A stretch of 64,000 nt of DNA. It comes from Candidatus Omnitrophota bacterium. Lineage in GTDB: Bacteria; Omnitrophota; Gorgyraeia; Gygaellales; Profunditerraquicolaceae. The DNA is taken from the NCBI GenBank assembly GCA_041309005.1, contig JBFZAN010000075.1, forward strand, positions 1,621-65,620, read 5' to 3'. The notes under the pieces were generated by a model, which made no database searches, was not told where the DNA came from, and saw only the letters and a program-made list of their open reading frames with translations. The position numbers and the translations under genes are program-made. The first letter of the stretch is position 1, and each line of letters begins with the position of its first letter. This document shows, in pieces, positions 1-14,863 of this stretch.

Positions 1-749
1 GCGATATAGCCGCGGTGGTGGATGATATTGAAATTCTGATAGATAGGCACCAGGCAAAATACATTTTCTTTACCGATTCGGTTTTTAATGATACGGCAGG
101 GAATTACCTTTTACTCCTTGATGAAATGGAAAAAAGAAAGATCAGTATTCCCTGGACGGCATTTTTTAAGCCGCAAGGGTTAGACGGCAGGGCCATTGAG
201 TTAATGAAGAAAACCGGGTTAAAAGCTGCCGAGATTGGGGCGGATGCACCTACGGATACGACTTTGAAAGGCCTGGGCAAGACTTTCAGCTTTGCGGACG
301 TGATTGCCTGCAATGACCTGTTTGCCGGATACCAGATAGCCACAGCCCACTATTTTATGTTTGGTTGCCCCGCGGAAACTGAGAAGAGCGTGTTGGAGGG
401 AATAGAAAATATTAAAAGCCTGAAAAAAACCGTGTCTTTTATTTTTATGGGAATACGCATACTTCCAGGCACCCCGCTTGCTGATGTAGCGCAAAAAGAG
501 GGGGTCATTACGCCCGGCCAAGATTTGCTTGACCCGGTTTATTATATTGCCCCGGGAATAGACAGGGCTTGGCTCCAAAATGTTTTAACGGAGGCGTTTA
601 AAGGTATGCGCAATTGCGTTTTCCCTCCGGATGCTTTGGATAGCAGCCTCGCATTTTTACATAAATTAGGTTATTCCGGCTCTCTCTGGGATATGCTTAT
701 CCCGGGGAATTTCAAGCGTAAACGAAAGAGTGCAGATGCCAGAAAATAA
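1..749 (+). CDS. Radical SAM superfamily protein, C-terminal part (5-prime truncated by window edge; first in-frame GTG at 15)
   Basis: Reading frame is open to position 1. C-terminal region aligns by eye with the C-terminal half of the B12-radical SAM protein at 8594-10051 (FVDDxF...EM.KR.I...W.AF.KP.GLD...ELMKK.GL). The CxxxCxxC motif would lie upstream of the window. Confidence 0.5.
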   Translation, partial: DIAAVVDDIEILIDRHQAKYIFFTDSVFNDTAGNYLLLLDEMEKRKISIPWTAFFKPQGLDGRAIELMKKTGLKAAEIGADAPTDTTLKGLGKTFSFADVIACNDLFAGYQIATAHYFMFGCPAETEKSVLEGIENIKSLKKTVSFIFMGIRILPGTPLADVAQKEGVITPGQDLLDPVYYIAPGIDRAWLQNVLTEAFKGMRNCVFPPDALDSSLAFLHKLGYSGSLWDMLIPGNFKRKRKSADARK

Positions 750-1926
750 TGTTTTTTCCACAGGACATATTTGGTGCGCGATTCCGGCATTTAATAATAA
801 AGATACAGTACAAGCAGTTGCTTTAGGGTGCCGTCAGTATCTTGAACACGTTATTGTGATTGACGACGGATCTACTGATTGCGATATCAAGGCGCTATTA
901 CGCAATACGGATATAATTGTTTTAAGGCACGATAAAAATCTAGGCAAGGGCCGAGCCCTGCGCACAGCCTTGAGCTTTATCGAAAAAAAGGGGGGCGAAT
1001 TTATGCTGGCCATTGATGCTGACGGCCAGCACTATCCCGAGGGCATATTGGATTTTATTCCGTTGCTGCAAGATGATGTTGCTGCGATTATTGTGGGACG
1101 CCGCAATTTTAATCAGAAACAGGTGCCTTTCAATAGCCGTTTTGGCCGGAAGTTTTCTAATTTGTGGATTAAGCTTGAAACCGGCATAGGCATACATGAT
1201 TCGCAAAGCGGATTTCGCGCCTATCCGGTAAGATATATTTCCAAGATGAAGCTTAATGGTAATTATTACGATTTTGAGGTAGAAATTTTAGCCCGAGCTG
1301 TTTGGGCAGGGCTTAAACTGAAGGAGGTTCCGGTTAACGTATTTTATCCGGAAGCAAGGTTACGCGTTTCCAGCTTCCATCCATTTATTGATAACCTGCG
1401 TATCAGCCTTATGCATGCCCGCCTTATCGGGCGCAGGCTCGTGCCATTGCCTTATCCAAGGGTAGTGCCTTTAGAAAATAAAAATATCCAGATGGATATA
1501 ATCAGCCACCCTATAAAATTACTAAAAAGATTACTCAAAGAAAATTCAACTCCTTTAGACTTAGCTGTTTCTTCCGGCGTGGCTATTTTTTTAGGCGTGT
1601 TGCCGTTAGTTTCGGTCCATATGTTGGTAATTATGTATGTCACTAGCAGGCTGCATTTAAATAAAATAATGGCGTTAGCTATTCAGAATTTGTGTATGCC
1701 GCCGTTTGTGCCGATTGCCTGTATTGAGCTTGGCTTTTTTTTGCGCTACGGAAGGTGGCTTACTGACATCTCCTGGAAGACAACTTTTGGTTCAATCCCC
1801 CAGCGGTTATGGGAATGGTTCCTGGGGTCACTCATACTGGCGCCGATAATGGCGATATCCGTGGCCATTATCGTGTATGTTATAAGCCGGAGGATACAAA
1901 AAAGAACAGTCGGATATGCAAAATAA
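730..1926 (+). CDS. Family 2 glycosyltransferase with C-terminal polytopic membrane (DUF2062-like) domain
   Basis: N-terminal GT-A fold signatures (IPAFNN...VIVIDDGSTD, DADGQ DxD-like motif). C-terminal ~130 aa hydrophobic. Overlaps upstream gene by 20 nt. Confidence 0.7.
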   Translation: MQMPENNVFSTGHIWCAIPAFNNKDTVQAVALGCRQYLEHVIVIDDGSTDCDIKALLRNTDIIVLRHDKNLGKGRALRTALSFIEKKGGEFMLAIDADGQHYPEGILDFIPLLQDDVAAIIVGRRNFNQKQVPFNSRFGRKFSNLWIKLETGIGIHDSQSGFRAYPVRYISKMKLNGNYYDFEVEILARAVWAGLKLKEVPVNVFYPEARLRVSSFHPFIDNLRISLMHARLIGRRLVPLPYPRVVPLENKNIQMDIISHPIKLLKRLLKENSTPLDLAVSSGVAIFLGVLPLVSVHMLVIMYVTSRLHLNKIMALAIQNLCMPPFVPIACIELGFFLRYGRWLTDISWKTTFGSIPQRLWEWFLGSLILAPIMAISVAIIVYVISRRIQKRTVGYAK

Positions 1927-2827
1927 GGTACCGCCAGAGAAAGTATCCGCCCAAAAGAGGGGCAATAGGTTGGGTTTTTGGTTTTTTAAAGCCTGTGTGA
2001 AACTTTTTGGCTTATCCGGGGCGTATGGTTTGTTGTATTTTGTCTGCGCGCATTATTTGCTTTTTGATAAAAAAGCAGTAAAAAACGCGCTGGCGTATAT
2101 ACAAAGAAGATTTCCCGGATGCGGGTCGTTTGCAAGTTTTTTTAAGGTGTACCGCTTATTTGTCAGCCAGGGCAAACAGCTGATTGACCGTTTTGCCATT
2201 ATTTCCGGCAGCGCCATATTTGATATTGAGCTGAAAGGCTATGAACGCTTAAGTTCTTTATTAGCAGACAAAAATAAAGGCTTTGTCCTTTTGACTGCCC
2301 ATGTAGGCAGTTGGCAGGTAGCGTTAACTACTTTGAAAAAACTGCATAAGCCGGTGTATTTGGTAATGCGCCCGGAAGATAATGCCGCGGTAAGGGAATC
2401 TTTAAATATAGATGCCCAGGATGATTTTATCCGGGTCATTTCTCCCGAAGGGTATTTAGGAGGCGTGGTTGAGGCAATGAATGTGCTAAGGGAAGGTTGC
2501 ATTGTTTCAATCATGGGCGATCGTAAATACGGATTTGAGGGGATAGATATTTCTTTTCTAAAAGATAAGGCTTCTTTCCCTTTTGGAGCGTTTAGTATTG
2601 CCGCAAGCAGCAATTGCCCGGTAGTAGTGTTATTGTCCGCAAAATTACCCGGGCGTAAATACATTGTGGATGTATCGCATGTGTTAACCCCTCGTTACGA
2701 TGCAGCGAAGGATAAGAAGGAGCAGCTAAGGAAATATGTCCAGGAATTTGCCGGGGTTTTGGATAAATATATTGAAGAATACCCATACCAGTGCTTTTTA
2801 TTTTATGACGTCTGGAGAGTAGAGTAG
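1916..2827 (+). CDS. LpxL/HtrB-family (Lip_A_acyltrans) lysophospholipid-type acyltransferase
   Basis: N-terminal TM helix. LLTAHVGSWQ resembles the HxxxxE/D catalytic motif (HFGNWE) of lipid A late acyltransferases. ~300 aa. Confidence 0.6.
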   Translation: MQNKVPPEKVSAQKRGNRLGFWFFKACVKLFGLSGAYGLLYFVCAHYLLFDKKAVKNALAYIQRRFPGCGSFASFFKVYRLFVSQGKQLIDRFAIISGSAIFDIELKGYERLSSLLADKNKGFVLLTAHVGSWQVALTTLKKLHKPVYLVMRPEDNAAVRESLNIDAQDDFIRVISPEGYLGGVVEAMNVLREGCIVSIMGDRKYGFEGIDISFLKDKASFPFGAFSIAASSNCPVVVLLSAKLPGRKYIVDVSHVLTPRYDAAKDKKEQLRKYVQEFAGVLDKYIEEYPYQCFLFYDVWRVE

Positions 2828-2838
2828 GAGGAGAGAAA

Positions 2839-3120
2839 ATGGAAAGTAATAGAGAGCAGGGTTTAGCCGAAATTCGTAAGAAGCTAAAGCAACTTCTGGT
2901 TACCAGCCTGTCGCTTGAAGACATTAAGCCGGAGAATATCAAAGACGACGAAATTCTTTTTGGCGAAGGGCTGGGCCTGGATTCTTTGGATGCCGTTGAA
3001 ATTGTGGTTTTGCTGCAGCGGAATTTCGGCCTGGAAGTAAAAGACATGAATCAAGGAAAAAAGATTTTTTATTCCGTAGATACTCTGGCGAATTATATCT
3101 ACGAAAACCAAAAGGTTTAA
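2839..3120 (+). CDS. Acyl carrier protein
   Basis: 93 aa, acidic, LGLDSLDAVEIV phosphopantetheine attachment motif (DSL). RBS GGAGGAG 8 nt upstream. Confidence 0.8.
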   Translation: MESNREQGLAEIRKKLKQLLVTSLSLEDIKPENIKDDEILFGEGLGLDSLDAVEIVVLLQRNFGLEVKDMNQGKKIFYSVDTLANYIYENQKV

Positions 3121-3129
3121 CATTCGCGC

Positions 3130-4296
3130 TTGATGTATACTCCAGTTGTTATAAGCGGCATGGGCGCTCTATGCGCCGCGGGCAAAAACGTCGAGGAGAT
3201 ATTAGCGTCGTTTAGCGCAGGGCAGCGCGCTTTGCAGCCACCAATGCTTTTTCCTACCGCGCTGGATTATCCTGTATTTGAAGTAAAAGGATTCTCTTGT
3301 CCAACGGGCGTTATGCGTACGCTGGCGTTGGCATTTGCGGCAGCTGCTGAAAGCTTGCGGCACGCCGGTCTCCCGCAGAGTTTGCGCGGCATGCGCACAG
3401 GGGTGTGTCTGGGCACCACTGTAGCAAGCCAGCTTAATGACGAAAATTGGTATACTGAATATAAAACTACCGGTTCTGCGCCGCAGGAACCAGTTGATAT
3501 TTATTTGAAAGGAAATATTGCCGAGGCATTTACGGAAAAATTTAATATCAAGGGGCCGGCGCTGACAGTGGTAAATGCCTGTTCATCCGGAGCCGATGCC
3601 ATAGGCGTTGCTTTAAGTTGGTTACAAACCGATTTATGCGATATCGTGATTGCGGGAGGAGCGGATGAAATGAATCATGTGCCTTACTGCGGCTTTGGGG
3701 CTTTAGGAGTAACGAGTCGGCAACCGTGTATGCCTTTTGACCGTGACCGTAACGGGCTTAATCTCGGGGAAGGCGCCGGGATACTCATCCTTGAGAAAGA
3801 AACGCATGCCCGTAAACGAGGGAATCGTTCGATACTATACGTTACCGGATACGGCGCGGCTGCAGATGCTTATCATCTGACCGCGCCGCGACCAGACGGA
3901 ACTGGCTTAGAGATAGCAATTAGCAAGGCATTGCGGCAGGCGGGTATACAGGAGGCTGATATCGCGTTTATTAACGCGCATGGCACTGCCACGCGCGATA
4001 ACGATAAGGCAGAAGGCAGGCTTTTTAAGCGGATGTTCGGTCCGGATGTAAAGTTTATCTCAACTAAAGGTTTTACCGGCCACGCGCTGGGTGCCACCGG
4101 CGCAATGGAAGCCATATTTACAGCGCTCGGCTTAAGAGAAGGCTGGGTTCCGGCTAATATTGGATTCAGCCAGGTTGATGAAGAGATCGGTATTGCTCCG
4201 GTCAGGGAAAGAACAAATATTACAGGCGAGCATGCGCTCTCAACGTCTTTAGCATTCGGCGGCAACAATGCCGCACTCATTATTGAACGAAAATGA
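3130..4296 (+). CDS. Beta-ketoacyl-ACP synthase (FabF/FabB-like elongating KS)
   Basis: Active-site Cys in VVNACSSGADAIG. His-His pair (INAHGTAT, GHALGATGA). C-terminal FGGNNAALIIE typical of KAS I/II. Confidence 0.85.
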   Translation: MMYTPVVISGMGALCAAGKNVEEILASFSAGQRALQPPMLFPTALDYPVFEVKGFSCPTGVMRTLALAFAAAAESLRHAGLPQSLRGMRTGVCLGTTVASQLNDENWYTEYKTTGSAPQEPVDIYLKGNIAEAFTEKFNIKGPALTVVNACSSGADAIGVALSWLQTDLCDIVIAGGADEMNHVPYCGFGALGVTSRQPCMPFDRDRNGLNLGEGAGILILEKETHARKRGNRSILYVTGYGAAADAYHLTAPRPDGTGLEIAISKALRQAGIQEADIAFINAHGTATRDNDKAEGRLFKRMFGPDVKFISTKGFTGHALGATGAMEAIFTALGLREGWVPANIGFSQVDEEIGIAPVRERTNITGEHALSTSLAFGGNNAALIIERK

Positions 4297-5039
4297 TAAA
4301 TATTAACGGGATAGGCATCATTTGCAATTATGGCAGGGGGATTGACGCGGTTAAGCTCGCATTAGAGAATGGGCACACGCATGATATTTTCACTTCCAGA
4401 GTAAACGACGATATCCTTAAAGATAAAATCTTTTCCAAAGACGCCCGCCGCAGCGACCGGTTTGATCGAATGGCCGTCCTGGCAGCGCTTGACGCCATAT
4501 CTTCTTCCGGAATTAACAGTGAAGTTGAAACGAATAACATCGGCATAATTCTCGCTACCGGCTTTGGCCCGCATGTGACTACATTCCGCTTTTTAGATGA
4601 TATTCTTGCCTACAAAGAGCCTGATGTCTCTCCGATATTATTCTCGCATTCCGTGCATAACGCAGCTGTTTCTTATATTTCTTCGCTTGCCGGAGTACGC
4701 GGGCCGACTTTGACGGTTACCAGGTTTTTTCGCGCGTTTGACGAAGCGCTCTCACTCGCCAATGCATGGCTGGAGCAAAAAAGAGTGCGTTTCGTCCTTG
4801 TGGGAGCTGTTGATGAGCAGAGTAATAGTATGGAATATATTACAAAAACTAAGGCCGGAATTACGCTTGGCGAAGGGAGCGTATTTTTTGTTGTGAGCAA
4901 AGAAAAGTGTGCTAAAATTTATTTGAAGGTGGAGCCGCTCACAAGCCTAAGTGCTGCGGCAACGGCACCTATTCAGAGCGCGTTTAATTCTGCGGCAGCA
5001 ATTATACTAAAAATTTATAATAAAGATACACCCGACTGA
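4293..5039 (+). CDS. Ketosynthase N-terminal-domain-like protein lacking catalytic cysteine (chain-length-factor-like partner)
   Basis: ATGA overlap with the KS gene. Thiolase-fold N-domain-like sequence (GIILATGFGP...AGVRGPTLTV), but the position of the nucleophilic Cys reads TRFFRAF. Only 248 aa. Confidence 0.5.
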   Translation: MININGIGIICNYGRGIDAVKLALENGHTHDIFTSRVNDDILKDKIFSKDARRSDRFDRMAVLAALDAISSSGINSEVETNNIGIILATGFGPHVTTFRFLDDILAYKEPDVSPILFSHSVHNAAVSYISSLAGVRGPTLTVTRFFRAFDEALSLANAWLEQKRVRFVLVGAVDEQSNSMEYITKTKAGITLGEGSVFFVVSKEKCAKIYLKVEPLTSLSAAATAPIQSAFNSAAAIILKIYNKDTPD

Positions 5040-5050
5040 GGAGGGAAGAG

Positions 5051-5635
5051 ATGAAACAAAAATTGAATGTTTTCGCCTGCCTTACTTTTGCCTGCGCCTT
5101 GTTGATACCCGCACGTGCCTGTTATGCCGGAGAAAAAGGTACCGATAGCCCGGTTAATAAGGCCTATTATACCGCTGTGAATATTTGGGTCGAGGAAGCA
5201 GGACAAATCTTTACTACCAACTTTCATAAAGGAACGATACTTCCAATTAATACAAAAGTTAAGATTGCGGAATATAGCGGGAAGGGTTTTAGTTTTACCG
5301 ATGGAAAAGGAACTAAGTATAAAATAGTTTATATGGCAAAACATTCGAATTTGCCTGTAAAAGAAGTGTTTCAGAGATACTTCTCTGAAAAAGAAATTCC
5401 TCTTGGCAAATTCACTAGAGAAGAACGCAAGAATATTGAGGCAGGGACGATTGCCGTAGGCATGTCCAAGGATGCGGTGATTGCTGCGTATGGATATCCG
5501 CCCAGCCATCAGACGCCTTCTTTAGAGGGCAAGCAGTGGAAATACTGGCAGGATCGGGTGAGAAACTTTCTGGTGCTTTTTGATAAAGATAACAAAGTGG
5601 AAGTTCCTTCGGCTAGAAGGGAAGATATAAAGTAA
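5051..5635 (+). CDS. Secreted protein with BamE/SmpA_OmlA-like C-terminal domain
   Basis: Signal peptide MKQKLNVFACLTFACALLIPARACYAG. C-terminal GMSKDAVIAAYGYPPS...WKYW resembles the BamE fold motif. RBS GAGGAGGG upstream. Confidence 0.4.
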   Translation: MKQKLNVFACLTFACALLIPARACYAGEKGTDSPVNKAYYTAVNIWVEEAGQIFTTNFHKGTILPINTKVKIAEYSGKGFSFTDGKGTKYKIVYMAKHSNLPVKEVFQRYFSEKEIPLGKFTREERKNIEAGTIAVGMSKDAVIAAYGYPPSHQTPSLEGKQWKYWQDRVRNFLVLFDKDNKVEVPSARREDIK

Positions 5636-5884
5636 AGCGTGCGTATTTATTATAGGCCGGAAAGAAGAGGGGACAGTTTTGCTTTCTATCAATTTTAATT
5701 GAGAAGGAGGCGTATAGGCGCAAGGCAATTAATCGTATTGTTTTATCAATATGGTTATGAAGAAAGCCGGTATATGGCAAAACCCCGCATAGACCATCGT
5801 TGGATGCTTGCCTCTTTTTTGTGCGCCATAGGTCCAGCTTTTATATAAACTCATAGAGAAACACGCGTCTTATTAATTATATCA

Positions 5885-6127
5885 ATGACCCGGCGAGAAG
5901 TAGAAGAAATTCTTAAAAGAGAAATCCATATAATTCTTGGCGGCAATATAGAGGTGCGCCTGGATGAAGAACTCCACACTATAGGAATGGACTCTATGGG
6001 TTTTGTTGAACTCCTTGTGTTTATTGAGAAACGTTTTGGTATCCGGCTTATTGATTCAGGGCTTACCAAAGATGATTTTCGCACCGTGCGTTCCCTGGCA
6101 GAGTGCATTAGTAAAAAGACGGCCTAA
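5885..6127 (+). CDS. Acyl carrier protein (second copy)
   Basis: 80 aa, IGMDSMGFVELLVFIEKRFG with DSM Ser motif in the helix-2 position. Confidence 0.7.
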   Translation: MTRREVEEILKREIHIILGGNIEVRLDEELHTIGMDSMGFVELLVFIEKRFGIRLIDSGLTKDDFRTVRSLAECISKKTA

Positions 6128-7450
6128 ATGGTTTCCCTCCCGTATTCGCCCGACAAATATTACCTGGGCGGCCTTGACTGGATAATTCACGCTCTTAATT
6201 ATCTTTCCCGGAAAGCTACCGGCTGCGGCAATTTAAGCCAGGTAATCCTGCGGCTAAGCGTGCCGCTTGACGAAGCTATCCTAAAAGAAAAACTTACCTC
6301 TTTTATGTGCCTTTTTCCTTGCGCTCAAGGATGGGTTAGCCGCGATTATAACCTCGCCCCATATTGGAAATATCCGCGCCACGCAAAGCCGGTAATTGAA
6401 TTACGCTGCAAACGTTGCCAAGACAAGGAAGAAGCGTTTGCGGTTTTATTCAAAGCAGTAAATCTTCCGTTTAAAAGCAAGCAGGAGCATGTGCGTTTTT
6501 GTTGTGTCAGGACCCCGCAGGAGTGTTATTTTTCTCTTGTGTTTGACCATCGGCTTTTTGACGCGCGGGGAGCGGAGGATTTTTTATTCCTATTTAACGA
6601 ATTCTTTTGCGGCCGTTTTACCGTGAATGGAACCGTGCGTCCGGTTCAGGCAGCCGGGCTCTCGCATTGGAAAGAAAAGTTTCTTGCCGGCAAGCGGATT
6701 AACCGCCTGTTCATCGGGCTTTCCCACGGTGCAAGTGTCCGGCATATTCCCTTACCGGATAAGGCGCAAGGCGGGCATTTTCAATTCCGCGTCCTGACTT
6801 TCGGCAAGGACCAATCGCAGGCCATTACTGATAACGCGTATAATACTGCCGGTTATCTGATGCTTGCTCCGTATCTGTTGGCCGTAAGCTTATTGAGCGT
6901 ACGCGAGTGTTTCAAAGATTATCTGCAAGATGGTTCTGATTTCTTAGTGCCGCTAAATACTGACATCCGCAAGCGCCACAGCGGATTAAAACAATTATTT
7001 TTTAATCATCTATCATTCTTACTCCTGAGAATAAAAGATAAAGATATCCGTGCGAACAAAGAGTTCATATCCGAAGTCACCCGCGCCGTGTACAGTGAGA
7101 TGTCCAGCGGCTCAACATATGACCTTGAACAGGCAAGCCTCCTGCTGCGCATTGCGCCGCTCGTGATCCTTCAAGGCATTATCGGGTCTTTCATGCGTAA
7201 GCAGGCTGTTTCATTTGCCTTTTCTTATGTTAATAATAGTTCCGGTATCCGCGATTTTTGCGGCAGCCCTTTAGAAGAAATGATCCACACGCCACGCATG
7301 GCGCTTATGTCCGGTATCGGAGTGTTCTTCACGCAGTTTGCGGGCAATATTTCGGTGACACTGTCGTTTTTGAAAGGCCTGATTAAAGAGAAGGATGCCG
7401 AGCAGTTTATGGCACAATTGGAAGAAAGATTATTAACACGCTACACGTAG
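6128..7450 (+). CDS. Hypothetical protein, possible HxxxD-type acyltransferase (condensation/WS-DGAT-like superfamily)
   Basis: Starts immediately after the ACP stop. FDHRLFDARG resembles the HHxxxDG catalytic motif. No other recognisable motifs. Confidence 0.3.
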   Translation: MVSLPYSPDKYYLGGLDWIIHALNYLSRKATGCGNLSQVILRLSVPLDEAILKEKLTSFMCLFPCAQGWVSRDYNLAPYWKYPRHAKPVIELRCKRCQDKEEAFAVLFKAVNLPFKSKQEHVRFCCVRTPQECYFSLVFDHRLFDARGAEDFLFLFNEFFCGRFTVNGTVRPVQAAGLSHWKEKFLAGKRINRLFIGLSHGASVRHIPLPDKAQGGHFQFRVLTFGKDQSQAITDNAYNTAGYLMLAPYLLAVSLLSVRECFKDYLQDGSDFLVPLNTDIRKRHSGLKQLFFNHLSFLLLRIKDKDIRANKEFISEVTRAVYSEMSSGSTYDLEQASLLLRIAPLVILQGIIGSFMRKQAVSFAFSYVNNSSGIRDFCGSPLEEMIHTPRMALMSGIGVFFTQFAGNISVTLSFLKGLIKEKDAEQFMAQLEERLLTRYT

Positions 7451-7457
7451 AAGGATA

Positions 7458-8597
7458 ATGAATTATACCGTCATTGCAGGCGCTGGCCTTGCAGGAGTAT
7501 GTGCCGCGGTTAGTTGCGCGCGTCAAGGCAAGCGGGTAGTGCTGATTGAAAAAAACAGTTTCCCCGGAGGCATAGCCGTAATATTACAGCATCGGGTGTT
7601 GTGCGGCTTATATCCGAATACGCTTGAGCGTCCCAGTAAGTTTTTAAATAAAGGGATTACGCCGGAATTATGCCGCCTGCTTGCGCCTGGACAGAAGCCA
7701 TTGCGTATGGGCAGGGTATGGGTGCTTCCCTTTGACCCTGCGCGCCTGGCTTTGATATTGGCTGTTTTTTTAAAGCGCGAAAGAAATATTGAGGTATTGT
7801 ATGACACCGAGTTTAAGTCATGCGTATGTGAGAATAACAATATAACTGCTGTCATGCTTAAGCGCCGCAGCCGCAGGTTTACGCTGCGGCCGCGTATGGT
7901 TATCGATGCCGGCACCGGAAGTGTCGTGCAGAAGGCAGGAGCTGCTGTGCGCTTAGAGTCAAATGAGAAACGCCAGTTTGCCGGATACACTATGCTCGTA
8001 GGCGGAGTCCTGTTTAACGAGGAGCTTGCTATACGCGTTCCTTATTGTTTACGACAGGCTGTCGGGAAGGGGTTGTTTGAGCGCCATGCGCAGTTTACCC
8101 TCGTGTATCCCGGAATGAAAAAATCTGAATTATATATAAAATACGCTTTACCTGTGGATACGGATGTTTCTGCAGCAAAGCGAGTGGCAGGCACTCTTTT
8201 AAGGTTTCTTATGCAAAACATTGTTGATTTTAAACGCAGCCGCGTTCTCTGGCAGGCGAAACAGGCATGTAACCGGGATTGCGCGCGGCTTTCGGGTGCG
8301 TATGTGATGAAGGCGCGCGATGTGCTTTCAGGCAGGAAATTCAGCGATGCCGTTATAAACGGCGCATGGCCCGTGGAATCCTGGAATATGGCGGGCGGTT
8401 TGCAATACTCTTATGTCGCAAACGGCTATTATCAGGTTCCACCTGGAGCGTTAAGGGCGAAGCGCATAAAGAATCTGTTCGCATGCGGGCGCTCTACGGC
8501 AGCGGACGGTGTCGCCGCAGCCACTCTGCGCGCTGGCGGCATGTGCATGGCAACAGGCGAAGCCGCAGGCCGCGCGGCAGCAGAGCAGGGAACATGA
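7458..8597 (+). CDS. FAD-dependent oxidoreductase
   Basis: N-terminal Rossmann dinucleotide motif VIAGAGLAGVCAA...VVLIEK. C-terminal GRSTAADGVAAATLRAGG typical of FAD oxidoreductases. Confidence 0.65.
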   Translation: MNYTVIAGAGLAGVCAAVSCARQGKRVVLIEKNSFPGGIAVILQHRVLCGLYPNTLERPSKFLNKGITPELCRLLAPGQKPLRMGRVWVLPFDPARLALILAVFLKRERNIEVLYDTEFKSCVCENNNITAVMLKRRSRRFTLRPRMVIDAGTGSVVQKAGAAVRLESNEKRQFAGYTMLVGGVLFNEELAIRVPYCLRQAVGKGLFERHAQFTLVYPGMKKSELYIKYALPVDTDVSAAKRVAGTLLRFLMQNIVDFKRSRVLWQAKQACNRDCARLSGAYVMKARDVLSGRKFSDAVINGAWPVESWNMAGGLQYSYVANGYYQVPPGALRAKRIKNLFACGRSTAADGVAAATLRAGGMCMATGEAAGRAAAEQGT

Positions 8598-10051
8598 AAA
8601 TCTTACTGGTAAAGCCATTTTCGGAGTTGTTGGTAGCAAAGCGCCTAGAAGAAGGGTTCTTGCGTCTTGAGCCGCTGGGCTTAGAAATTGTGGCTGGAGG
8701 CGTACCGCAGGAGGATGATGTCCGCATTCTTGATTTGGGTTTATACAAAGATCCGGTGCGCAAGTTTGAAGAAACTGTGCGCGGGTATCTGCCCGATATA
8801 GTCGGTTTTTCCGCCTATAGCTCTATGGTCGGAACAGTGAAACAGCTCAGCTGCAGTGCGAAAAAAATAGATTCGGGTATTAAAATAGTTGTCGGGGGCA
8901 TTCATGCGACAGTCGTTCCCGCTGATTTCAATGATCCGTTTATAGATATTGTAGTTCGCGGAGAAGGTGGCACCGCTATGCGCGAGATTATCCGAAGGCA
9001 TAAGAATAACGAGCCGTTATATTTCAGTGACATTGCTTTTGCTCCGGCCGCACCTGATTTTACCGTTAAAGCCGCGTCTGCTCCGCCGTCTTATCCGGAC
9101 GTCCGCGATATACCGCGGCCAAGGCGTGATCTGGTTGAAAGAACCCGCTATTTTTGTGTGTGGACAAGGAGCGATACTAACCGGTTGGACCATCTTTTTC
9201 CGCAGGTAGCAAGTATGCGCACTTCGATTGGCTGCGCGTATTCCTGCTCGTTTTGCGTGATACATTACCTGATGAACGGTAAATATCTTAAACGCGACCC
9301 GGAAGATGTGGTTGATGAGATTGCCGGTATCCGCGAAGACTATATCTATTTTGTGGATGATGAGATGTTTTTGGATGCCGCGCGCGTGCGGCGTATTGCG
9401 GAGATGCTGAAAGAAAAAGGCATCCGCAAACATTATATCAGTTGGGCGCGCAGTGATACGATTGTTCGTTATCCGGAAGTCTTTAAACTGTGGAAGGAAA
9501 TAGGGCTTGATGTGGTGTATGTTGGCCTTGAGTCAGTTGATGAATCTCGCCTCGCCGAGTACGCTAAACGCACCAGCATTGATACGAACCGCCGGGCAGT
9601 TAACATTTTAAAGGATTTTGGTATTATGCTGCACGCAGCTTTTATCGTGCACCCTGATTTTGAGGCAGATGATTTCTGCCGGCTTGAGGCTGAGATCAAG
9701 CGCATAAGCCCTGCGGAAATTACTTTTACCGTGCTTTCTCCGTCTCCGGGTACGAAATTCTGGAACGATAATAGAAATAGATTTATCTGCGACCCCTACC
9801 GGTTTTATGACTGCATGCACACGATTCTACCCGCGCGGTTACCTTTGCGGCGCTTCTACCAGCATTTTGGAAAGCTGACCAGCCTTGCGCTGCGCGCAAA
9901 TCCCTTGCGTATGCAGCGTATCCGCGTGCCGTTGCCTGATTTTTTGAGGGCGGTTTTTTGCGGGACCAGGTATATTTTTTCGCTCTACTCAATTTATAAA
10001 GACTACAAAGGCTTGCTAAAAGACGAGCTTATTTACGGAAAACACGCCTAA
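8594..10051 (+). CDS. B12-binding domain radical SAM protein
   Basis: Start corrected to the ATG at 8594 (ATGA overlap with upstream stop); the track ORF 8279.. is a spurious 5-prime extension. N-terminal cobalamin-binding domain (MKILLVKP...LGLEIVAGGV...DVRILD). CxxxCxxC cluster SIGCAYSCSFCV. Confidence 0.8.
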   Translation: MKILLVKPFSELLVAKRLEEGFLRLEPLGLEIVAGGVPQEDDVRILDLGLYKDPVRKFEETVRGYLPDIVGFSAYSSMVGTVKQLSCSAKKIDSGIKIVVGGIHATVVPADFNDPFIDIVVRGEGGTAMREIIRRHKNNEPLYFSDIAFAPAAPDFTVKAASAPPSYPDVRDIPRPRRDLVERTRYFCVWTRSDTNRLDHLFPQVASMRTSIGCAYSCSFCVIHYLMNGKYLKRDPEDVVDEIAGIREDYIYFVDDEMFLDAARVRRIAEMLKEKGIRKHYISWARSDTIVRYPEVFKLWKEIGLDVVYVGLESVDESRLAEYAKRTSIDTNRRAVNILKDFGIMLHAAFIVHPDFEADDFCRLEAEIKRISPAEITFTVLSPSPGTKFWNDNRNRFICDPYRFYDCMHTILPARLPLRRFYQHFGKLTSLALRANPLRMQRIRVPLPDFLRAVFCGTRYIFSLYSIYKDYKGLLKDELIYGKHA

Positions 10052-10055
10052 GTTT

Positions 10056-11480
10056 ATGAACATCGTCAAATCATTGATTGCCGAGAATTCCGGTTATGAC
10101 GGTACAGCCGTTATTGAAGGCGATTCTATTATTACCTATCAGGAATTGTTTAGGCGGGTTACGGCCGCTGCAGATGAATTTTGTTCGAGGGGATTGCGCG
10201 AGAAGGCGTGCGTTGCTTTAATGCTGCGCGGAGGCATTGAATATATTATTGTCAATCTTGGGTTACTTTCCGCAGGCGCCGTGGTTATGCCGATACCGGA
10301 AAATTCTCCCGATGAAGAGGTAAAAGAAATTATCGCCATAACGCGGCCCGATGCGGTCATTATTTCAAGGGCACTTCCCGGAGTTGACGCTGAGCCGATA
10401 CTGGAAGGCGCGTTTCATAAAACTCTGCGTATTTTTTATCCCAGTCGCGCCAATAATCGGAGGCGGCAGTTTTTGAAGGACCAAGATGGCGCATTTATTC
10501 GTTTTTCATCGGGAACAACCGGTGCATGCAAAGGGGTCGTATTGTCTCACCGGGCAATTTTCGAGCGTACTGACGCCGCGGACCGTGCCTTACAAATACG
10601 CCGCAGCGACCGCATTTTATGGGTCTTATCCATGAGCTTTCACTTCGTAGTGACGATACTGTTGTTTTTGCGCCGGGGGGCAACGATTATCGCGTGCGAA
10701 GAAAATTTTCCCGATTCTGTGGCAGCGGCAGTTGGCCGGACAAAGCCGACTTTTATATACGCAGCGCCGTTTCATTACGATTCGCTCGCCAGTATGAAAG
10801 TTGTTACAAAGGAGGCTCTTGGCGGAGTGCGCCTTGCTATATCAACTGCCGTGGCGTTATCGCCTATTACGGCTAAGCGCTTCTATGATGTATTCGGGAT
10901 ACTGCCGTCTCAGGCCTATGGAATTATTGAAGTCGGGCTTGTGGCTGTGAATACCTCGCAAGACTTTTCCAAGGCGCTTTCCGTTGGCAAAGTATTGCCC
11001 GATTACCAGCTTAAATTCGCTAATATCAGAAATGATGGCGCTGGCCGGATCCTCCTGAAGGGCAAGGGCATATTTGATGCCTACCTTTATCCGCTGCGAA
11101 AAGCAGGCAAAATCTTCAGAAACGGCTGGTTTAATACCGGAGATATCGGCCGAATTGACCAAGACGGATACTTATATATTACCGGCCGTACAAAAAATAT
11201 CATAAATTTCTGCGGAATGAAGGTTTTTCCCGAGGAGGTCGAGGCTGTCTTGAATCGATATCCGCAGGTGAAAGAGTCGCGGGTGTATGGCGTAGGGCAC
11301 GCAGAATACGGGCAGCTTGTTTATGCCGATATTGTTCCTGAAGTAAAAACGATTAATATTGGATCGTTGCGCTTATTTTGTTACCGGGAGCTGGCTAAAT
11401 ATAAAGTCCCTAAATATTTTCAGGTAGTTTCCTCTTTACCAAAAACCAAGAGCGGAAAGATAAAACGTATTGTAGTTTAA
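10056..11480 (+). CDS. AMP-dependent synthetase/ligase (fatty acyl-AMP/ACP ligase type)
   Basis: AMP-binding motif FSSGTTGACKGVVLSH. Core motifs YGIIEVG, TGDIGRIDQDGYLYITGRTKN, and C-terminal Lys in PKTKSGKIKR. Confidence 0.8.
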   Translation: MNIVKSLIAENSGYDGTAVIEGDSIITYQELFRRVTAAADEFCSRGLREKACVALMLRGGIEYIIVNLGLLSAGAVVMPIPENSPDEEVKEIIAITRPDAVIISRALPGVDAEPILEGAFHKTLRIFYPSRANNRRRQFLKDQDGAFIRFSSGTTGACKGVVLSHRAIFERTDAADRALQIRRSDRILWVLSMSFHFVVTILLFLRRGATIIACEENFPDSVAAAVGRTKPTFIYAAPFHYDSLASMKVVTKEALGGVRLAISTAVALSPITAKRFYDVFGILPSQAYGIIEVGLVAVNTSQDFSKALSVGKVLPDYQLKFANIRNDGAGRILLKGKGIFDAYLYPLRKAGKIFRNGWFNTGDIGRIDQDGYLYITGRTKNIINFCGMKVFPEEVEAVLNRYPQVKESRVYGVGHAEYGQLVYADIVPEVKTINIGSLRLFCYRELAKYKVPKYFQVVSSLPKTKSGKIKRIVV

Positions 11481-11677
11481 GCGCGCTCTATTATCGGCAT
11501 GCCTAAAGAAAATTCCTTATATAAAAATAGGAAAACTTGTTAAATCTGATTTAAGAGAGCTTTATGACGATAAACAATCGGGTAACAACCAGGCTCGAAG
11601 TTAGCCTTGCAATAAAAGATAAATTGTTGTAACATATTGATATATCTACGGGAAAAAGAATCAATTTTGCAGAATCC

Positions 11678-11822
11678 CTGCCTCTCCGATTATTCCCTAT
11701 AATTGAACAGAGGCGGTCTTTAGCATATCCGATAACCCGAGACCTGCCTCTTCGATTATTCCCTATTATTGAATAGAGGCGGTCTTCAGCATATCAGATT
11801 ACCCGAGACCCGCTTCTGCGCT
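11678..11822. repeat. Tandem array of ~66-nt two-hairpin units (2 full + 1 degenerate), same family as 49535-49752
   Basis: Unit consensus c(t/a)gcctctccgat-loop-ttgaa(t/c)agag(g/a)cggtct-loop-cgagac. Unit boundaries 11678, 11744, 11810. Confidence 0.8.
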
Positions 11823-11864
11823 ATGTTTTTCAGGTGAACCCCGCTTGAGGAAAAAAGTTCTTGT

Positions 11865-13196
11865 ATGAAAGATTATTTCAACGTTTTCCTATACCGCTTC
11901 AGGACGGCAGATCCGGTACGGTTGGTAGTTGCGGGATATATGTCCTATATCTTTATAGGGTTTATCCTGTTGTGCCTTCCGTTTATGCACAAAAATTTCG
12001 TCCATCCCCTGGATAATCTTTTTATCGCCACTTCCGCAGTTTCTACAACCGGGCTAACAACGGTCACGGTGAGCAACGATTATAATTTCTGGGGACAGTT
12101 AGTCATTCTTGTCCTTATCCAGTTGGGCGGTATCGGGTACATGACTTTTAGTTCCTTTGTAATTTTATCTACCAAGAAATATCTTGATGACCACACAAAG
12201 AATATCGCTCATGTTGTATTCAGTATCCCCAAAAACTTCAAAATTGAGAAGTTTATTCTAAGTGTCATCGGATTTTCGGCCGTGGTTGAAATGCTGGGAG
12301 CAATAGGGTTATTTTTTGTATTTTGGCAGGCAGGAGTGGAGAATCCTTTTTGGAAGGCTATATTCCACAGTGTTTCGGCTTTTTGCACTGCCGGATTCAG
12401 CCTGTTTCCTAACAGCTTTGAAGGGTTTTCAAATAATTTCAGCCTTAATGCCATTATTTCTGTGTTGAGCATACTGGGCGCAATGGGATTTATTGTTTGC
12501 GTTGATGTTGTGCGGCTCATCCAGGGTAAAGAAAAGCACGTTACGTTGACTACAAAGGTCATTCTTTCAATAACATTTTGGCTCCTTTTGATCGGATCAG
12601 TGTTGATGTTCCTGACTGAAATCTACGGAGGCGGGGTTGCATCACAAAACAGAATAATGTATTCATTCTTTCAAGCTATGACGGCCCTTACAACAGTGGG
12701 ATTCAATACCATCACGGTCAGCACAATGTCTAAATCAGCTATTATGCTTATATGTATATTGATGATTATAGGTGCTTCGCCGGCAGGTACCGGTGGTGGG
12801 TTGAAGACTACCACATTTTCAGCAATCTGGGGATTAATGAAAAGCGCCATCAAGGGCAATAAAAGCGTGCGCATATTAGGAGCCACAGTACCGGATGACC
12901 GGGTTAGAACAGCTGTGGCAACTTTGAGTTTTTATATATCGACCTTGCTGGTCGGAACGTATCTGCTCACTTTGACGGAGAATGGCTCGTTTATCGATAT
13001 CTTTTTCGAAGCAGCTTCTGCTTTGGGAACTGTCGGCTTGAGCATGGGCATTACTGTGGCGTTGTCAGTATTGGGAAAACTTGTAATAATCATATTGATG
13101 TATATAGGTCGTGTCGGGCCTTTGACATTCGGCATGGCATTTTATGTGAAGCCTGAGCTTATATTTGATGACGAAAAAACTGATTTGGCGGTATAA
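11865..13196 (+). CDS. trkH: TrkH/KtrB-family potassium uptake membrane protein
   Basis: Repeated M1PM2 selectivity-filter-like motifs (TTGLTTVT, TAGFS, GASPAGTGGGLKTTTF, GTVGLSMG). Polytopic. Confidence 0.8.
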   Translation: MKDYFNVFLYRFRTADPVRLVVAGYMSYIFIGFILLCLPFMHKNFVHPLDNLFIATSAVSTTGLTTVTVSNDYNFWGQLVILVLIQLGGIGYMTFSSFVILSTKKYLDDHTKNIAHVVFSIPKNFKIEKFILSVIGFSAVVEMLGAIGLFFVFWQAGVENPFWKAIFHSVSAFCTAGFSLFPNSFEGFSNNFSLNAIISVLSILGAMGFIVCVDVVRLIQGKEKHVTLTTKVILSITFWLLLIGSVLMFLTEIYGGGVASQNRIMYSFFQAMTALTTVGFNTITVSTMSKSAIMLICILMIIGASPAGTGGGLKTTTFSAIWGLMKSAIKGNKSVRILGATVPDDRVRTAVATLSFYISTLLVGTYLLTLTENGSFIDIFFEAASALGTVGLSMGITVALSVLGKLVIIILMYIGRVGPLTFGMAFYVKPELIFDDEKTDLAV

Positions 13197-13286
13197 TGTA
13201 TGTATAAGCGCTCCCATACTACGCCTGCGGTAGAGTTTTATAAGCAGGCTTGTTTCAATAGTAGGGTCCGCTAAAAGCGAAAGGGT

Positions 13287-13874: not shown

Positions 13875-14023
13875 AAAAAAGGATGTCTTTGCAGGATAAA
13901 GCCGAAGCGGCATTAAAAAAAGCCGTGCGTGGCGTCGTTGAGCGGCATAAAAAAACAGGCCGACCGCTTGCGGTATGGGCGAATGGCAAGACCGTCCGCA
14001 TTTCGCCCAAAACGGTGAAATAG
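13871..14023 (+). CDS. Small basic protein (50 aa) translationally coupled to the zeta-like kinase; possible antitoxin-like partner
   Basis: ATGA overlap with the upstream stop. ORF MKKRMSLQDKAEAALKKAVRGVVERHKKTGRPLAVWANGKTVRISPKTVK. Below the ORF-track cutoff; found by reading the sequence. Confidence 0.3.
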   Translation: MKKRMSLQDKAEAALKKAVRGVVERHKKTGRPLAVWANGKTVRISPKTVK

Positions 14024-14069
14024 CAGCACTAAATGGCATTAATGCTATGAAAGAAACGCATAATCTAAG

Positions 14070-14831: not shown

Positions 14832-14863
14832 AGAGTATTTTCCTATTATTAAAAGGAGCCCCT

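Follow-up and report, generated by a model that had tools for sequence, protein, structure and literature searches.

The window analysed here is a 64,000-nucleotide stretch of a Candidatus Omnitrophota contig, and its first 11,480 positions carry twelve open reading frames, all on the + strand, exactly where a first-pass annotation of the DNA had placed them. The frames are tightly spaced and, taken in order, the intergenic junctions are -20, -11, +11, +9, -4, +11, +249, 0, +7, -4 and +4 nt, the 249-nt gap lying at 5636-5884, 5' of the gene for the second carrier protein. Profile scans with Pfam and NCBIfam models upheld nearly all of the domain identities previously given to the products, which are as follows.

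3-749, + strand: radical SAM protein, C-terminal 248 aa, TIGR04072 (rSAM_ladder_B12; 331 bits, model positions 211-442)
730-1926, + strand: GT2 glycosyltransferase with a C-terminal DUF2062 membrane domain (PF00535, 60.5 bits; PF09835, 45.2 bits)
1916-2827, + strand: LpxL/PatA-family acyltransferase (PF03279, 40.2 bits, cut-off 22.3)
2839-3120, + strand: acyl carrier protein 1 (ACP1), Ser49 in a DSL motif (PF00550; NF006617 (PRK09184), 75.5 bits, cut-off 70)
3130-4296, + strand: FabF-like ketosynthase (KS) with Cys151, His284 and His318 (PF00109, PF02801)
4293-5039, + strand: short Cys-less KS-like partner of 248 aa, an ApeC-type chain-length factor (CLF; PF00109, N-terminal part only; PF13723)
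5051-5635, + strand: variable accessory gene for a 194-aa secreted protein or lipoprotein with a hydrophobic, signal-peptide-like N-terminus
5885-6127, + strand: carrier protein 2 (ACP2), Ser37 in a DSM motif (PF00550, 32.7 bits)
6128-7450, + strand: predicted stand-alone condensation (C) enzyme, 440 aa, catalytic motif FDH141RLFD145ARG (assigned on the invariant HxxxD and the modelled fold)
7458-8597, + strand: FAD-dependent oxidoreductase with a two-dinucleotide-binding-domain flavoprotein fold (PF12831, 206 bits)
8594-10051, + strand: class-B (B12-binding) radical SAM enzyme, methylase-like (PF02310, 69.5 bits; PF04055, 60.5 bits)
10056-11480, + strand: compact ANL-superfamily (adenylate-forming) acid ligase of 474 aa (PF00501, 172 bits; PF13193, 55 bits)

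These genes belong to a widely distributed arrangement. A KS-anchored scan of species-representative genomes returned 525 relatives, spanning Omnitrophota, Nitrospirota, Desulfobacterota, Hydrogenedentota, Verrucomicrobiota and other phyla, and the gene order is common to all 80 of the 80 loci that were sampled from them. Hundreds of anaerobic bacterial species carry the cluster, whose core genes are individually present in 85-100% of relatives.

The first gene is cut by the edge of the window, and the N-terminal B12 domain and CxxxCxxC motif of its product lie upstream. A sister assembly (L002) encodes the identical protein at its full length of 457 aa, which scores 640 bits against TIGR04072 (cut-off 360), has a PF02310 domain (76 bits) and carries the motif CVHKCIYC; the gene was found in 63 of 67 in-range relatives. 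The first-pass annotation had counted two B12-radical SAM enzymes, and this stands within the window for 8594-10051, whereas the B12 domain of the truncated protein is seen only in the sister genome. The truncated gene overlaps that of the GT2-DUF2062 protein by 20 nt; in the sister genome the latter is called from window position 736. The GT2-DUF2062 and LpxL-like genes are present in 60 of 62 and 60 of 61 relatives respectively, and in two loci (L010 and L011) they are fused to encode one protein of 685-717 aa. Matches of the LpxL-like protein to the NCBIfam models for lipid A lauroyl-acyltransferase and PIM-acyltransferase are far under cut-off.

ACP1 was found in 54 of 56 relatives, with a median identity of 75%. 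The adjacent KS is predicted to be catalytically active, given its Cys151, His284 and His318, and matches PRK09185 (289 bits) and AmcF (235 bits), each under cut-off; among PDB sequences ordinary FabF (~205 bits) is as close as any match. A 4-nt overlap joins the start of the CLF gene to the KS stop codon. In the CLF protein Phe stands at the position of the catalytic Cys and the C-terminal half is missing; its PDB match is a weak one, to the 204-aa Ketoacyl_synth_N protein 7f28_A. The product of 5051-5635 had been described as BamE-like, but it has no Pfam or NCBIfam match at E<=0.01, and the gene was found in only 19 of ~51 relatives.

The remaining genes include a discrete A-T-C (adenylation, carrier, condensation) module, in which the ligase is A, ACP2 is T and the 440-aa protein is C. 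The top NCBIfam matches of ACP2 are AmcB (55 bits, cut-off 80), DltC and AsbD, all carrier proteins that are loaded by stand-alone adenylating enzymes. Directly abutting ACP2 (0-nt gap) is the gene for the 440-aa HxxxD protein, and a new detail of the present analysis is that this protein is predicted to have the fold of a free-standing NRPS condensation enzyme. Its AF2 model (pLDDT 84, pTM 0.88) retrieves NRPS C, Cy and E domains from the PDB with Foldseek (probability 1.0, TM 0.58-0.71), and the free-standing C-like enzymes AzeD and SgcC5 fall in the same range; moreover, all 24 homologues compared keep H141 and D145. The family numbers 332 representatives at E<=1e-30. The FAD oxidoreductase gene comes after the C-enzyme gene in every one of 44 metagenome loci, and the AF2 model of its product (pLDDT 93.5) has as its closest fold the geranylgeranyl-reductase-like Ta0516, with a TM of only 0.34-0.49 and hence no close structural relative. 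For the radical SAM enzyme that follows, the correct start is the ATG at 8594; the long open reading frame had been listed from a TTG at 8279. It carries the motif C214AYSC218SFC221, matches HpnR best among NCBIfam models (240 bits, far under the cut-off of 650) and TokK, AprD4 and OxsB among PDB sequences, and is accessory, being found in ~25 of 44 loci. The ligase, present in ~40 of 44 loci, has an SSGTTGACK motif; it had been called a fatty-acyl-AMP ligase, but its matches are to the ANL superfamily in general and every NCBIfam match is under cut-off. The module as a whole (ACP2, C enzyme, FAD oxidoreductase, optional B12-radical SAM enzyme and ligase) is kept in 44 metagenome loci and 3 long contigs.

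Positions 1-11,480 are the 3' part of a larger locus, 12 of at least 27 genes and the last 40% of a ~30-kb lipid-building cluster, which runs on upstream of position 1 for at least 15 genes in L096 (GCA_041309065.1), another assembly from this species. Specifically, in the direction of transcription this assembly has; 1) a KS (KS409), an ACP and a PlsC acyltransferase; 2) a PaaK/FlxY-like ligase (449 bits to FlxY_rubin, cut-off 520); 3) a radical SAM/SPASM protein fused to an ApeP-like dehydratase; 4) LolA (105 bits to LolA2_flexi, cut-off 125), an MMPL exporter and two proteins without assignment; 5) an ApeI-like dehydratase and a 4HBT thioesterase; 6) a second KS (KS376), a DUF4410 protein and a short Cys-less CLF; and, 7) a 419-aa B12-radical SAM protein, the third such enzyme, followed by the TIGR04072 protein. 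The short protein 3' of the upstream KS is homologous to the CLF in the window (hhalign probability 97.4%, E 1e-11). In relatives, an SDR ketoreductase gene lies upstream of the first KS in all 7 loci where this region is visible, and a gene for an amine-oxidase/phytoene-desaturase-like flavoprotein in all 13. The distinctness that had been claimed for the locus, from its apparent lack of dehydratase, ketoreductase and MMPL/LolA genes, is therefore an artefact of the window edge, as shown for the dehydratases, LolA and MMPL by the same species and for the ketoreductase by its relatives. At the other end, the TrkH, zeta-like kinase and methyltransferase genes 3' of the ligase are confined to the same species, and so the ligase gene is the final gene of the cluster. 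In one locus (L176) the ketoreductase, the desaturase-like gene and the first KS come immediately after the tail, which indicates that head and tail of the cluster belong together.

We propose that the locus is the 3' part of a conserved ~30-kb aryl-polyene/flexirubin-type lipid cluster, and consider this the probable explanation overall. Its gene content, domains and folds, catalytic motifs, synteny and distribution are observed, whereas the substrates, the sequence of reactions and the product are deduced. By analogy with the aryl-polyene lipid pathway, a starter acid would be loaded by the upstream FlxY-like ligase, and polyunsaturated acyl chains would be built on ACPs by KS or KS/CLF pairs with the ketoreductase and the ApeI/ApeP-like dehydratases; one such chain may be made by ACP1, the KS and its Cys-less partner in the window. 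The TIGR04072 enzyme may modify an unactivated carbon of a chain, with methylation as the default for its class, although a review notes that B12-radical SAM enzymes also catalyse other chemistry. The GT2-DUF2062 and LpxL-like pair, which the earlier annotation had taken for an installation pair and which is supported as an anchoring pair, could place a sugar on a (lyso)phospholipid-type anchor and then acylate it with an ACP-bound chain. In the tail, the ligase would load a carboxylic acid onto ACP2, where the FAD oxidoreductase (C-C/C=C redox) and the HpnR-like enzyme (C-methylation) could tailor it, and the C enzyme may transfer the product to the growing lipid, at an amine or hydroxyl group, with LolA-like and MMPL proteins exporting the final lipid to the outer membrane. 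The KS/CLF pair, two ACPs, adenylating enzyme and class-B radical SAM enzymes bear out the earlier idea of a private assembly line that also tailors its acyl chain. An aryl head group is not established, since an aryl starter would call for an aromatic amino-acid lyase, and only 1 locus had one.

One alternative is that the tail module is a functionally separate add-on that simply travels with the lipid cluster and would make a small acylated metabolite or modify another envelope component. Discrete A-T-C logic is what small-molecule pathways typically show, for example those using free-standing C enzymes of the VibH or SgcC5 type; in addition, the B12-radical SAM gene is optional and the 249-nt gap precedes ACP2. 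We nonetheless regard this as unlikely, since the module adjoins the KS/CLF genes at virtually all loci whose flanks are long enough, the cluster head directly follows it in L176, and the C-enzyme family is small and seen only in the present context. Slightly less probable still is the proposal of Rattray et al. (2009), in which the cluster would make free polyunsaturated fatty acids or hydrocarbons without oxygen, and not an anchored outer-membrane glycolipid. The phytoene-desaturase-like and FAD oxidoreductase genes, the several KS and dehydratase genes and the polyunsaturated hydrocarbons detected in D. psychrophila would fit this, but the conserved PlsC, GT2-DUF2062, LpxL-like, LolA-like, MMPL and C proteins point to a complex, exported and anchored lipid like the aryl-polyene lipids. 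Bacterial polyunsaturated hydrocarbons are, moreover, now ascribed to the Pfa and Ole pathways, which counts against such a route.

The first-pass annotation had itself read the twelve genes as a compact, self-contained pathway that builds and tailors one acyl chain and puts it on a lipid-A-like acceptor, independently of its neighbours. The window does include a loading enzyme and two carrier proteins, along with the KS/CLF pair, tailoring enzymes and two transferases, and the 249-nt gap could part sub-operons. However, the first gene is truncated and overlaps the next, the upstream genes of the same species are co-directional and similarly tightly spaced, and the whole order is kept across many phyla; without a ketoreductase or dehydratase in the window, the KS/CLF pair could not finish elongation cycles unless upstream or housekeeping enzymes took part. 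Synteny has already largely refuted this reading, which we now find very improbable. We give least credence to the production of true ladderane (concatenated cyclobutane) lipids by the present bacterium, for although the cluster has an 'rSAM_ladder_B12' member and shares an ACP, KS, mutated KS, flavoprotein and B12-radical SAM enzyme with anammox candidate loci, these lipids have been found in anammox Planctomycetota only, D. psychrophila has syntenic loci yet no ladderanes, the literature does not link the clusters of non-anammox phyla to them, the anammox-specific 'Cluster I' contains an amxFabZ and an amxACP of its own, and the KS in the window is no nearer to any solved KS than ordinary FabF.

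The relation to both candidate ladderane and aryl-polyene clusters suggested earlier is supported. The cluster is an ordinary member of a widespread class that antiSMASH calls 'ladderane' after Rattray et al. (2009), so that both the class and its 'ladderane-type' label are already known and there is no new compact pathway here. First described in Kuenenia, Desulfotalea and Geobacter, the class has been reported by antiSMASH in Desulfobacterota, Omnitrophota and other phyla, with its function unassigned in the literature; expression of the Kuenenia genes in a heterologous host produced nothing informative. The literature holds no experimentally characterised syntenic cluster, and no member of the class, with an identified product. 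Since the FlxY, LolA2, AmcF/AmcG/AmcB and HpnR models are all matched under their curated cut-offs, function cannot be transferred from them as from equivalogs. Rattray et al. (2009) reported SAM enzymes, a phenylacetyl-CoA ligase, a glycosyltransferase, a phytoene dehydrogenase and a membrane protein to be syntenic between Kuenenia and D. psychrophila, which is the same unusual combination as found here. In architecture, the cluster is likely to be of the type II PKS/FAS-like, aryl-polyene/flexirubin family, with the addition of up to five radical SAM enzymes. The analogy draws on the published roles of ApeD, ApeJ, ApeL, ApeM and ApeN and on the structure of the aryl-polyene lipid, and extends to ApeJ, whose N-terminal half corresponds to the GT2-DUF2062 protein and whose C-terminal half corresponds to the LpxL-like acyltransferase; as the two genes are fused in L010 and L011, the pair corresponds to a split ApeJ.

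Positions 3-11480 of the window hold twelve co-directional genes on the + strand (ORF listing and translation), whose successive junctions measure -20, -11, +11, +9, -4, +11, +249, 0, +7, -4 and +4 nt.

Genes of the cluster inside the window: coordinates, strand, assignment
3-749, +, radical SAM protein, 5'-truncated (Pfam/NCBIfam)
730-1926, +, GT2 with a DUF2062 membrane domain (Pfam/NCBIfam)
1916-2827, +, LpxL-like acyltransferase (PF03279)
2839-3120, +, carrier protein ACP1 (DSL motif)
3130-4296, +, FabF-like ketosynthase (KS), triad Cys151/His284/His318 intact
4293-5039, +, KS-like partner (CLF), 248 aa, Phe in place of the catalytic Cys, without the C-terminal half
5051-5635, +, 194-aa protein with a signal-like N-terminus, no family match
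5885-6127, +, second carrier protein, ACP2 (DSM motif)
6128-7450, +, 440-aa protein, no Pfam match by sequence
7458-8597, +, FAD oxidoreductase (PF12831)
8594-10051, +, B12-binding radical SAM enzyme (motif CAYSCSFC)
10056-11480, +, AMP-binding ligase (Pfam/NCBIfam), last gene of the cluster

Pfam and NCBIfam searches bear out nearly all of the domain calls made in the first-pass annotation, with two exceptions. The product of 5051-5635, which had been called BamE-like, has no Pfam or NCBIfam match at E<=0.01, the BamE (SmpA/OmlA) profile included. The terminal enzyme, which had been called a fatty-acyl-AMP ligase (FAAL), can be assigned generically to the ANL superfamily and no more narrowly, its NCBIfam matches being generic ANL models that all fall below cut-off, the best PRK06187 (234 bits, cut-off 476). 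Typical FAALs are longer than the 474 amino acids of this ligase. The B12-binding radical SAM gene begins with the ATG of 8594 (MKILLVKPF...), the start called in the sister genome, with a 4-nt overlap with the preceding stop codon; a TTG start given by a mechanical ORF (8279-10051) was rejected, as it lies 315 nt early, within the FAD oxidoreductase gene. Exact look-up of the 398-aa GT2 ORF, in which the start codon differs, returned no match, and that of the 303-aa acyltransferase matched a 1.4-kb contig only. Promoter and terminator scans of 1-13500 gave nothing enriched over shuffles and no clear internal terminator, and the Rfam scan gave no riboswitch, hence no cobalamin riboswitch near the cluster, its sole matches being two tRNAs far downstream.

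These twelve genes are part of a larger cluster, a unit of approximately 30 kb and at least 27 genes through which the window edge cuts. Contigs of three sister assemblies encode a protein with 100% identity to the 440-aa one. The upstream gene list is defined by contig JBFZAI010000018.1 of GCA_041309065.1, from the same species, which was read on both sides (as loci L002 and L096). Position 1 of the window corresponds to position 3874 of L002, whose proteins match all twelve of the window at 99-100% identity. The genes that precede the window there are co-directional and tightly spaced.

Genes upstream of the window in the same species (L096/L002), in order
KS, 409 aa
ACP
PlsC-type acyltransferase
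PaaK-like ligase, 449 bits to the flexirubin FlxY model (FlxY_rubin), cut-off 520
L096 3140-4624, radical SAM/SPASM protein (AhbD/NirJ-like) fused to an ApeP-like dehydratase (PF22817), 494 aa
LolA-like protein, 105 bits to LolA2_flexi, cut-off 125
MMPL-type transporter, 802 aa
two proteins without an assigned family
ApeI-like dehydratase (PF22818)
4HBT thioesterase
KS, 376 aa
DUF4410 lipoprotein
165-aa protein
B12-radical SAM protein, 419 aa
full 457-aa form of the truncated first window gene, TIGR04072 at 640 bits, cut-off 360

The fragment of this last gene that lies in the window scores 331 bits over half the model of TIGR04072, the family described as 'lipid biosynthesis B12-binding/radical SAM protein, rSAM_ladder_B12'; a text search of a library of papers for TIGR04072 gave no mention. 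The full cluster contains three KS genes and two short Cys-less partners. The short protein that follows an upstream KS is homologous to the CLF in the window (profile-profile probability 97.4%, E 1e-11), and therefore the cluster has two KS/CLF pairs and one solo KS, with three carrier proteins. The fusion of a SPASM protein to an ApeP-like dehydratase is kept in 50 of 58 relatives, and to our knowledge there is no characterised example of such a fusion. In loci with more upstream DNA visible, the first KS is preceded by an SDR ketoreductase (7 relatives) and by an amine-oxidase/phytoene-desaturase-like flavoprotein (13 relatives).

The extent of the cluster changes how it should be described. 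The first-pass annotation had presented a compact twelve-gene pathway and had held it to be distinct from ladderane and aryl-polyene clusters because dehydratase, ketoreductase and MMPL/LolA genes are absent from the window. Neither statement survives, as in the same species the cluster runs on upstream of the window, with the dehydratases and the MMPL and LolA genes right beside its edge, and the ketoreductase gene is found upstream in relatives. At the other end, the 3' boundary at 11480 is sound because the genes beyond it (TrkH, a zeta-toxin-like kinase, a methyltransferase and a 226-aa protein) are confined to the same species; on that ground they were rejected as cluster members.

A scan of one genome per GTDB species, using an alignment of the upstream KS as query, returned 525 relatives. 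The best 80 of the 525 loci come from Omnitrophota, Nitrospirota/Thermodesulfovibrionia, Desulfobacterota (including Desulfobacterium sp. N47), Hydrogenedentota, Verrucomicrobiota, Planctomycetales, Spirochaetales and others, and among these 80, mapped by tblastn, the gene order is the same nearly everywhere. Counted over those loci whose flank extends to the gene in question, LolA is present in 59/59, MMPL in 59/61, the ApeI-like dehydratase in 70/74, the thioesterase in 72/75, the 419-aa type of B12-radical SAM protein in 67/71, TIGR04072 in 63/67, GT2 in 60/62, the LpxL-like acyltransferase in 60/61, ACP1 in 54/56, the KS in 47/55 and the CLF in 44/54. The KS of the Omnitrophota genome PPR_0471 is 99% identical. 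This MAG also has a second, paralogous cluster core, from KS to ACP2, on contig JBFZAQ010000041.1, with proteins 40-86% identical to the reference proteins and a GC of 0.51. This is a genuine second copy or else a binned-in contig of a related population. In 20 Nitrospirota loci (L095 4665-7254 and 19 others) a polysaccharide deacetylase gene lies between ACP1 and KS, joined in 5 of them by an inserted HemN-like radical SAM gene.

The cluster tail was sampled separately: three long contigs were examined, the 440-aa protein served as anchor for a metagenome scan, and the counts cover the 44 loci that extend 3 kb or more downstream. The 440-aa protein is followed by the FAD oxidoreductase in 44/44 of these and the AMP-ligase is in the tail of about 40/44. 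The B12-radical SAM enzyme of 8594-10051 has its counterpart in about 25/44 and is accordingly an accessory gene, and many tail loci carry a further B12-radical SAM gene after the ligase. One relative (L176) ties the cluster tail to the cluster head, since its ligase is followed directly by the ketoreductase, a desaturase-like gene and the first KS.

The cluster stands apart in composition from what follows it. Window 1-14850, comprising the cluster with the TrkH, zeta-like kinase and methyltransferase genes, has a GC of 0.46 and a third-codon-position GC (GC3) of 0.44-0.52, and window 14850-64000 has a GC of 0.54 and a GC3 of 0.66-0.77, with a sharp break between the two. A chimeric contig might be suspected, but the same junction is present in the independent sister assembly (L002), which suggests instead a horizontally acquired island of approximately 35 kb. 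The zeta-toxin/AAA_33-type P-loop kinase (195 aa, 13287-13874) had no obvious epsilon-type antitoxin noticed adjacent to it; in the sister genome a 50-aa ORF is called just downstream. Window 15597-64000 looks like ordinary chromosomal content, with a multi-PAS histidine kinase (877 aa), a Polysacc_synt polysaccharide-biosynthesis membrane protein, a GH1 glycosidase, a TamB-like protein, a GT20 trehalose-6-phosphate-synthase-like enzyme, an OEP and MacB-type ABC efflux set, an ABC-F ATPase, an S8 subtilase and the two Rfam tRNAs (48819-48892 and 49457-49545).

That the two radical SAM proteins of the window set are B12-binding class B enzymes, as had been proposed, is confirmed by HMM scan for 8594-10051 (PF02310 69.5 bits, cut-off 32.1; PF04055 60.5 bits; CAYSCSFC) and, for the first gene, via the sister genome only. 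In the enzyme of 8594-10051, as in the hopanoid C-3 methylase HpnR and in TokK, a B12-binding domain at the N-terminus precedes a radical SAM core with CxxxCxxC, and TokK is among its PDB relatives. The characterised family that scores best is HpnR, whose target is a lipid carbon, at 240 bits against a TIGR04367 equivalog cut-off of 650; orthology with HpnR was ruled out on that score, and no hopanoid genes are present. As these closest characterised relatives are C-methylases, methylation is the default reading of its sequence, with cyclisation or other chemistry possible. More broadly, the radical SAM enzymes and flavoproteins could plausibly provide strict anaerobes with a means to functionalise unactivated chain carbons.

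For the 440-aa protein, a profile search of its family against PDB sequences gave marginal matches only, to the DHRxxDG region of E2 acyltransferases, and PF00668 is not detected in it at E<=0.01, though a few homologues carry a match; it was the fold search that placed the family. Its AlphaFold model (pLDDT 84, pTM 0.88) was matched by Foldseek to NRPS condensation, heterocyclisation and epimerisation domains and to free-standing C-like enzymes, with AzeD the top structural match and SgcC5 also found (probability 1.0, TM 0.58-0.71). The protein has the two-lobed, chloramphenicol-acetyltransferase-like (CAT-like) C-domain fold and the conserved HxxxD that mark the NRPS C superfamily, and FDH141RLFD145ARG is invariant across 24 homologues of 33-80% identity. 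Like SgcC5 and AzeD, it keeps the full two-lobed fold in approximately 440 aa with the catalytic His/Asp conserved and, like free-standing NRPS-type C enzymes, its gene adjoins that of its own carrier protein and is accompanied by a stand-alone adenylating enzyme. It differs from them in sequence, with an identity of 10-16% and the motif DHxxxD(A)xG rather than HHxxxDG. With 332 representatives among 1.84 billion at E<=1e-30, this is a small family, met here in this cluster context only.

The gene for this C enzyme begins immediately after the ACP2 stop codon, and the best family matches of ACP2 are AmcB, DltC and AsbD, carrier proteins served by stand-alone adenylating enzymes. Together with the compact ANL ligase at the end of the cluster, these two genes form a discrete adenylation-carrier-condensation (A-T-C) module, in which the ligase would load an acid on ACP2 and the C enzyme would transfer it to an amine or hydroxyl. 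The FAD oxidoreductase model is of high quality (pLDDT 93.5); it has no PDB sequence match, and in the fold search its relatives are at superfamily level only (TM<0.5, the best a geranylgeranyl-reductase-like protein), so that no specific reaction can be assigned. Its role would most simply be C-C/C=C redox on a tethered acyl group.

How the whole might work, including substrates, order of steps and product, we infer by analogy with the aryl-polyene (APE) lipids. Two or three specialised acyl chains would be built on the ACPs of the cluster, joined to a glyco-phospholipid-type anchor by the PlsC enzyme and by the GT2/LpxL-like pair in the window, and the product would then be exported. A more ambitious proposal, tentative and in our estimate rather unlikely to hold as a whole, is that the cluster makes a new class of outer-membrane glycolipid in strict anaerobes, an oxygen-independent counterpart of APE whose polyene or acyl chains are methylated or cyclised by cobalamin-dependent radical SAM enzymes on their carriers, in which the A-T-C module adds a radical-SAM-tailored acyl group, and which is possibly of the stock from which anammox ladderane chemistry came.

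The interest lies in the chemistry of the whole class more than in this locus; the copy in the window adds little beyond another member and would not surprise a specialist. Few uncharacterised lipid clusters of anaerobic bacteria are spread as widely as this class (525 matches among GTDB species representatives); it is a non-anammox relative of loci suspected of making ladderanes, and a tractable member could reveal new radical lipid chemistry. What our analysis adds is the corrected extent (~30 kb, at least 27 genes), the split ApeJ and the discrete A-T-C module.

Among known systems, the gene set matches loci that were reported as syntenic in Kuenenia stuttgartiensis and Desulfotalea psychrophila, with further examples in Geobacter and Pelobacter (Rattray et al., 2009), the paper on which the antiSMASH 'ladderane' class was built. 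Those loci join several FabF paralogues whose active sites are altered to radical SAM enzymes, an oxidoreductase, a phytoene dehydrogenase, a phenylacetyl-CoA-ligase-like enzyme, a glycosyltransferase and a membrane protein. Surveys have since placed such clusters in Desulfobacterota, Omnitrophota, Verrucomicrobiota and other phyla, expressed and of unknown function. The present cluster shares with them the TIGR04072 B12-radical SAM enzyme, several FabF paralogues (Cys-less ones among them), the set of a phenylacetyl-CoA-ligase-like enzyme, a glycosyltransferase and a membrane protein (the ligase, GT2 and MMPL of the same species), a phytoene-desaturase-like flavoprotein, in the 13 relatives that show it, and carriage by anaerobes of many phyla. 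Moreover, the Nitrospirota relatives share the polysaccharide-deacetylase (Kuste3351 in Kuenenia) and HemN-like genes with the Kuenenia locus. The carrier differs, being an Omnitrophota bacterium. The locus thus shows the defining features tested for a ladderane-type cluster, to which it is assigned on TIGR04072, gene content and the published Omnitrophota and Desulfobacterota reports, and it adds one more member, carried by an Omnitrophota MAG, to a kind of cluster that is known and widespread but uncharacterised. To call it a ladderane producer would be unwarranted. In the literature ladderanes are confined to anammox bacteria, and D. psychrophila, a carrier of syntenic loci, lacks them; Kuenenia candidates expressed heterologously gave no product, and according to a 2026 review the biosynthesis of ladderanes has yet to be resolved. 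'Cluster I' (KustE3603-3608), which is specific to anammox bacteria, forms a locus of its own with six genes: amxACP, amxFabZ, amxFabF2, amxFabFmut, a phytoene-dehydrogenase homologue and a B12-radical SAM enzyme.

A narrower resemblance is to cispentacin/coronafacic-acid-type sets (AmcB, AmcF, AmcG, AmcH), which also have an ACP loaded by a stand-alone adenylating enzyme and a KS with a very short Cys-less partner. The NCBIfam scores all lie below the equivalog cut-offs (AmcF 235/325, AmcB 55/80, AmcG 30.6/80), and the context of export, anchoring and radical SAM enzymes is unlike that of cispentacin biosynthesis. Against PDB sequences the KS in the window shows no special affinity for any solved KS/CLF system.

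In architecture the cluster is of the aryl-polyene-lipid system type, and the locus needs to be studied as a whole ~30-kb unit. It has counterparts for most components of the APE lipid system, as judged against the clusters of E. coli CFT073 and Xenorhabdus doucetiae and the flexirubin cluster. Specifically, these are: 1) for the ApeH/FlxY-type loader, the upstream PaaK/FlxY-like ligase, below the cut-off of the FlxY model; 2) for ApeE/ApeF, the ACPs (at least two); 3) for ApeO/ApeC and ApeR, the KS/CLF pairs and solo KS; 4) for ApeQ, an SDR ketoreductase, as seen in 7 relatives; 5) for ApeI/ApeP, the ApeI-like and ApeP-like dehydratases (L096); 6) for ApeK, the 4HBT thioesterase; 7) for ApeD, the PlsC-type acyltransferase (L096); 8) for ApeJ, the GT2-DUF2062 protein and LpxL-like acyltransferase (PF03279), split in the window and fused in L010 and L011; and, 9) for ApeL/ApeM, the LolA-like and MMPL export proteins (L096), the LolA2 model again scoring below cut-off. 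Both the APE-family core (a KS/CLF pair and ACPs in the window, PF22818 and PF22817 in L096) and the anchoring and export functions (GT2-DUF2062 and PF03279 in the window, PlsC, LolA and MMPL in L096) are represented. Evidence on an aryl starter comprises the loader's sub-cut-off FlxY_rubin score and, in one relative, an aromatic amino-acid ammonia-lyase gene (L061 53-1528; PF00221, 523 bits) that immediately precedes the ketoreductase and could supply such a starter there; confined to that locus, it was rejected as a general cluster feature. The product of the Xenorhabdus system is a glycerol-phosphate-GalNAc lipid on which ApeD places a conjugated C26:5 acyl chain and ApeJ an aryl polyene, before export to the outer membrane. 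Unlike APE clusters, the conserved set has no ApeB-type methyltransferase and its carriers are strict anaerobes rather than Proteobacteria/Bacteroidota; its additions to the APE set are one SPASM protein, as many as four B12-radical SAM enzymes, two flavoproteins, and the discrete A-T-C module with its free-standing C enzyme.
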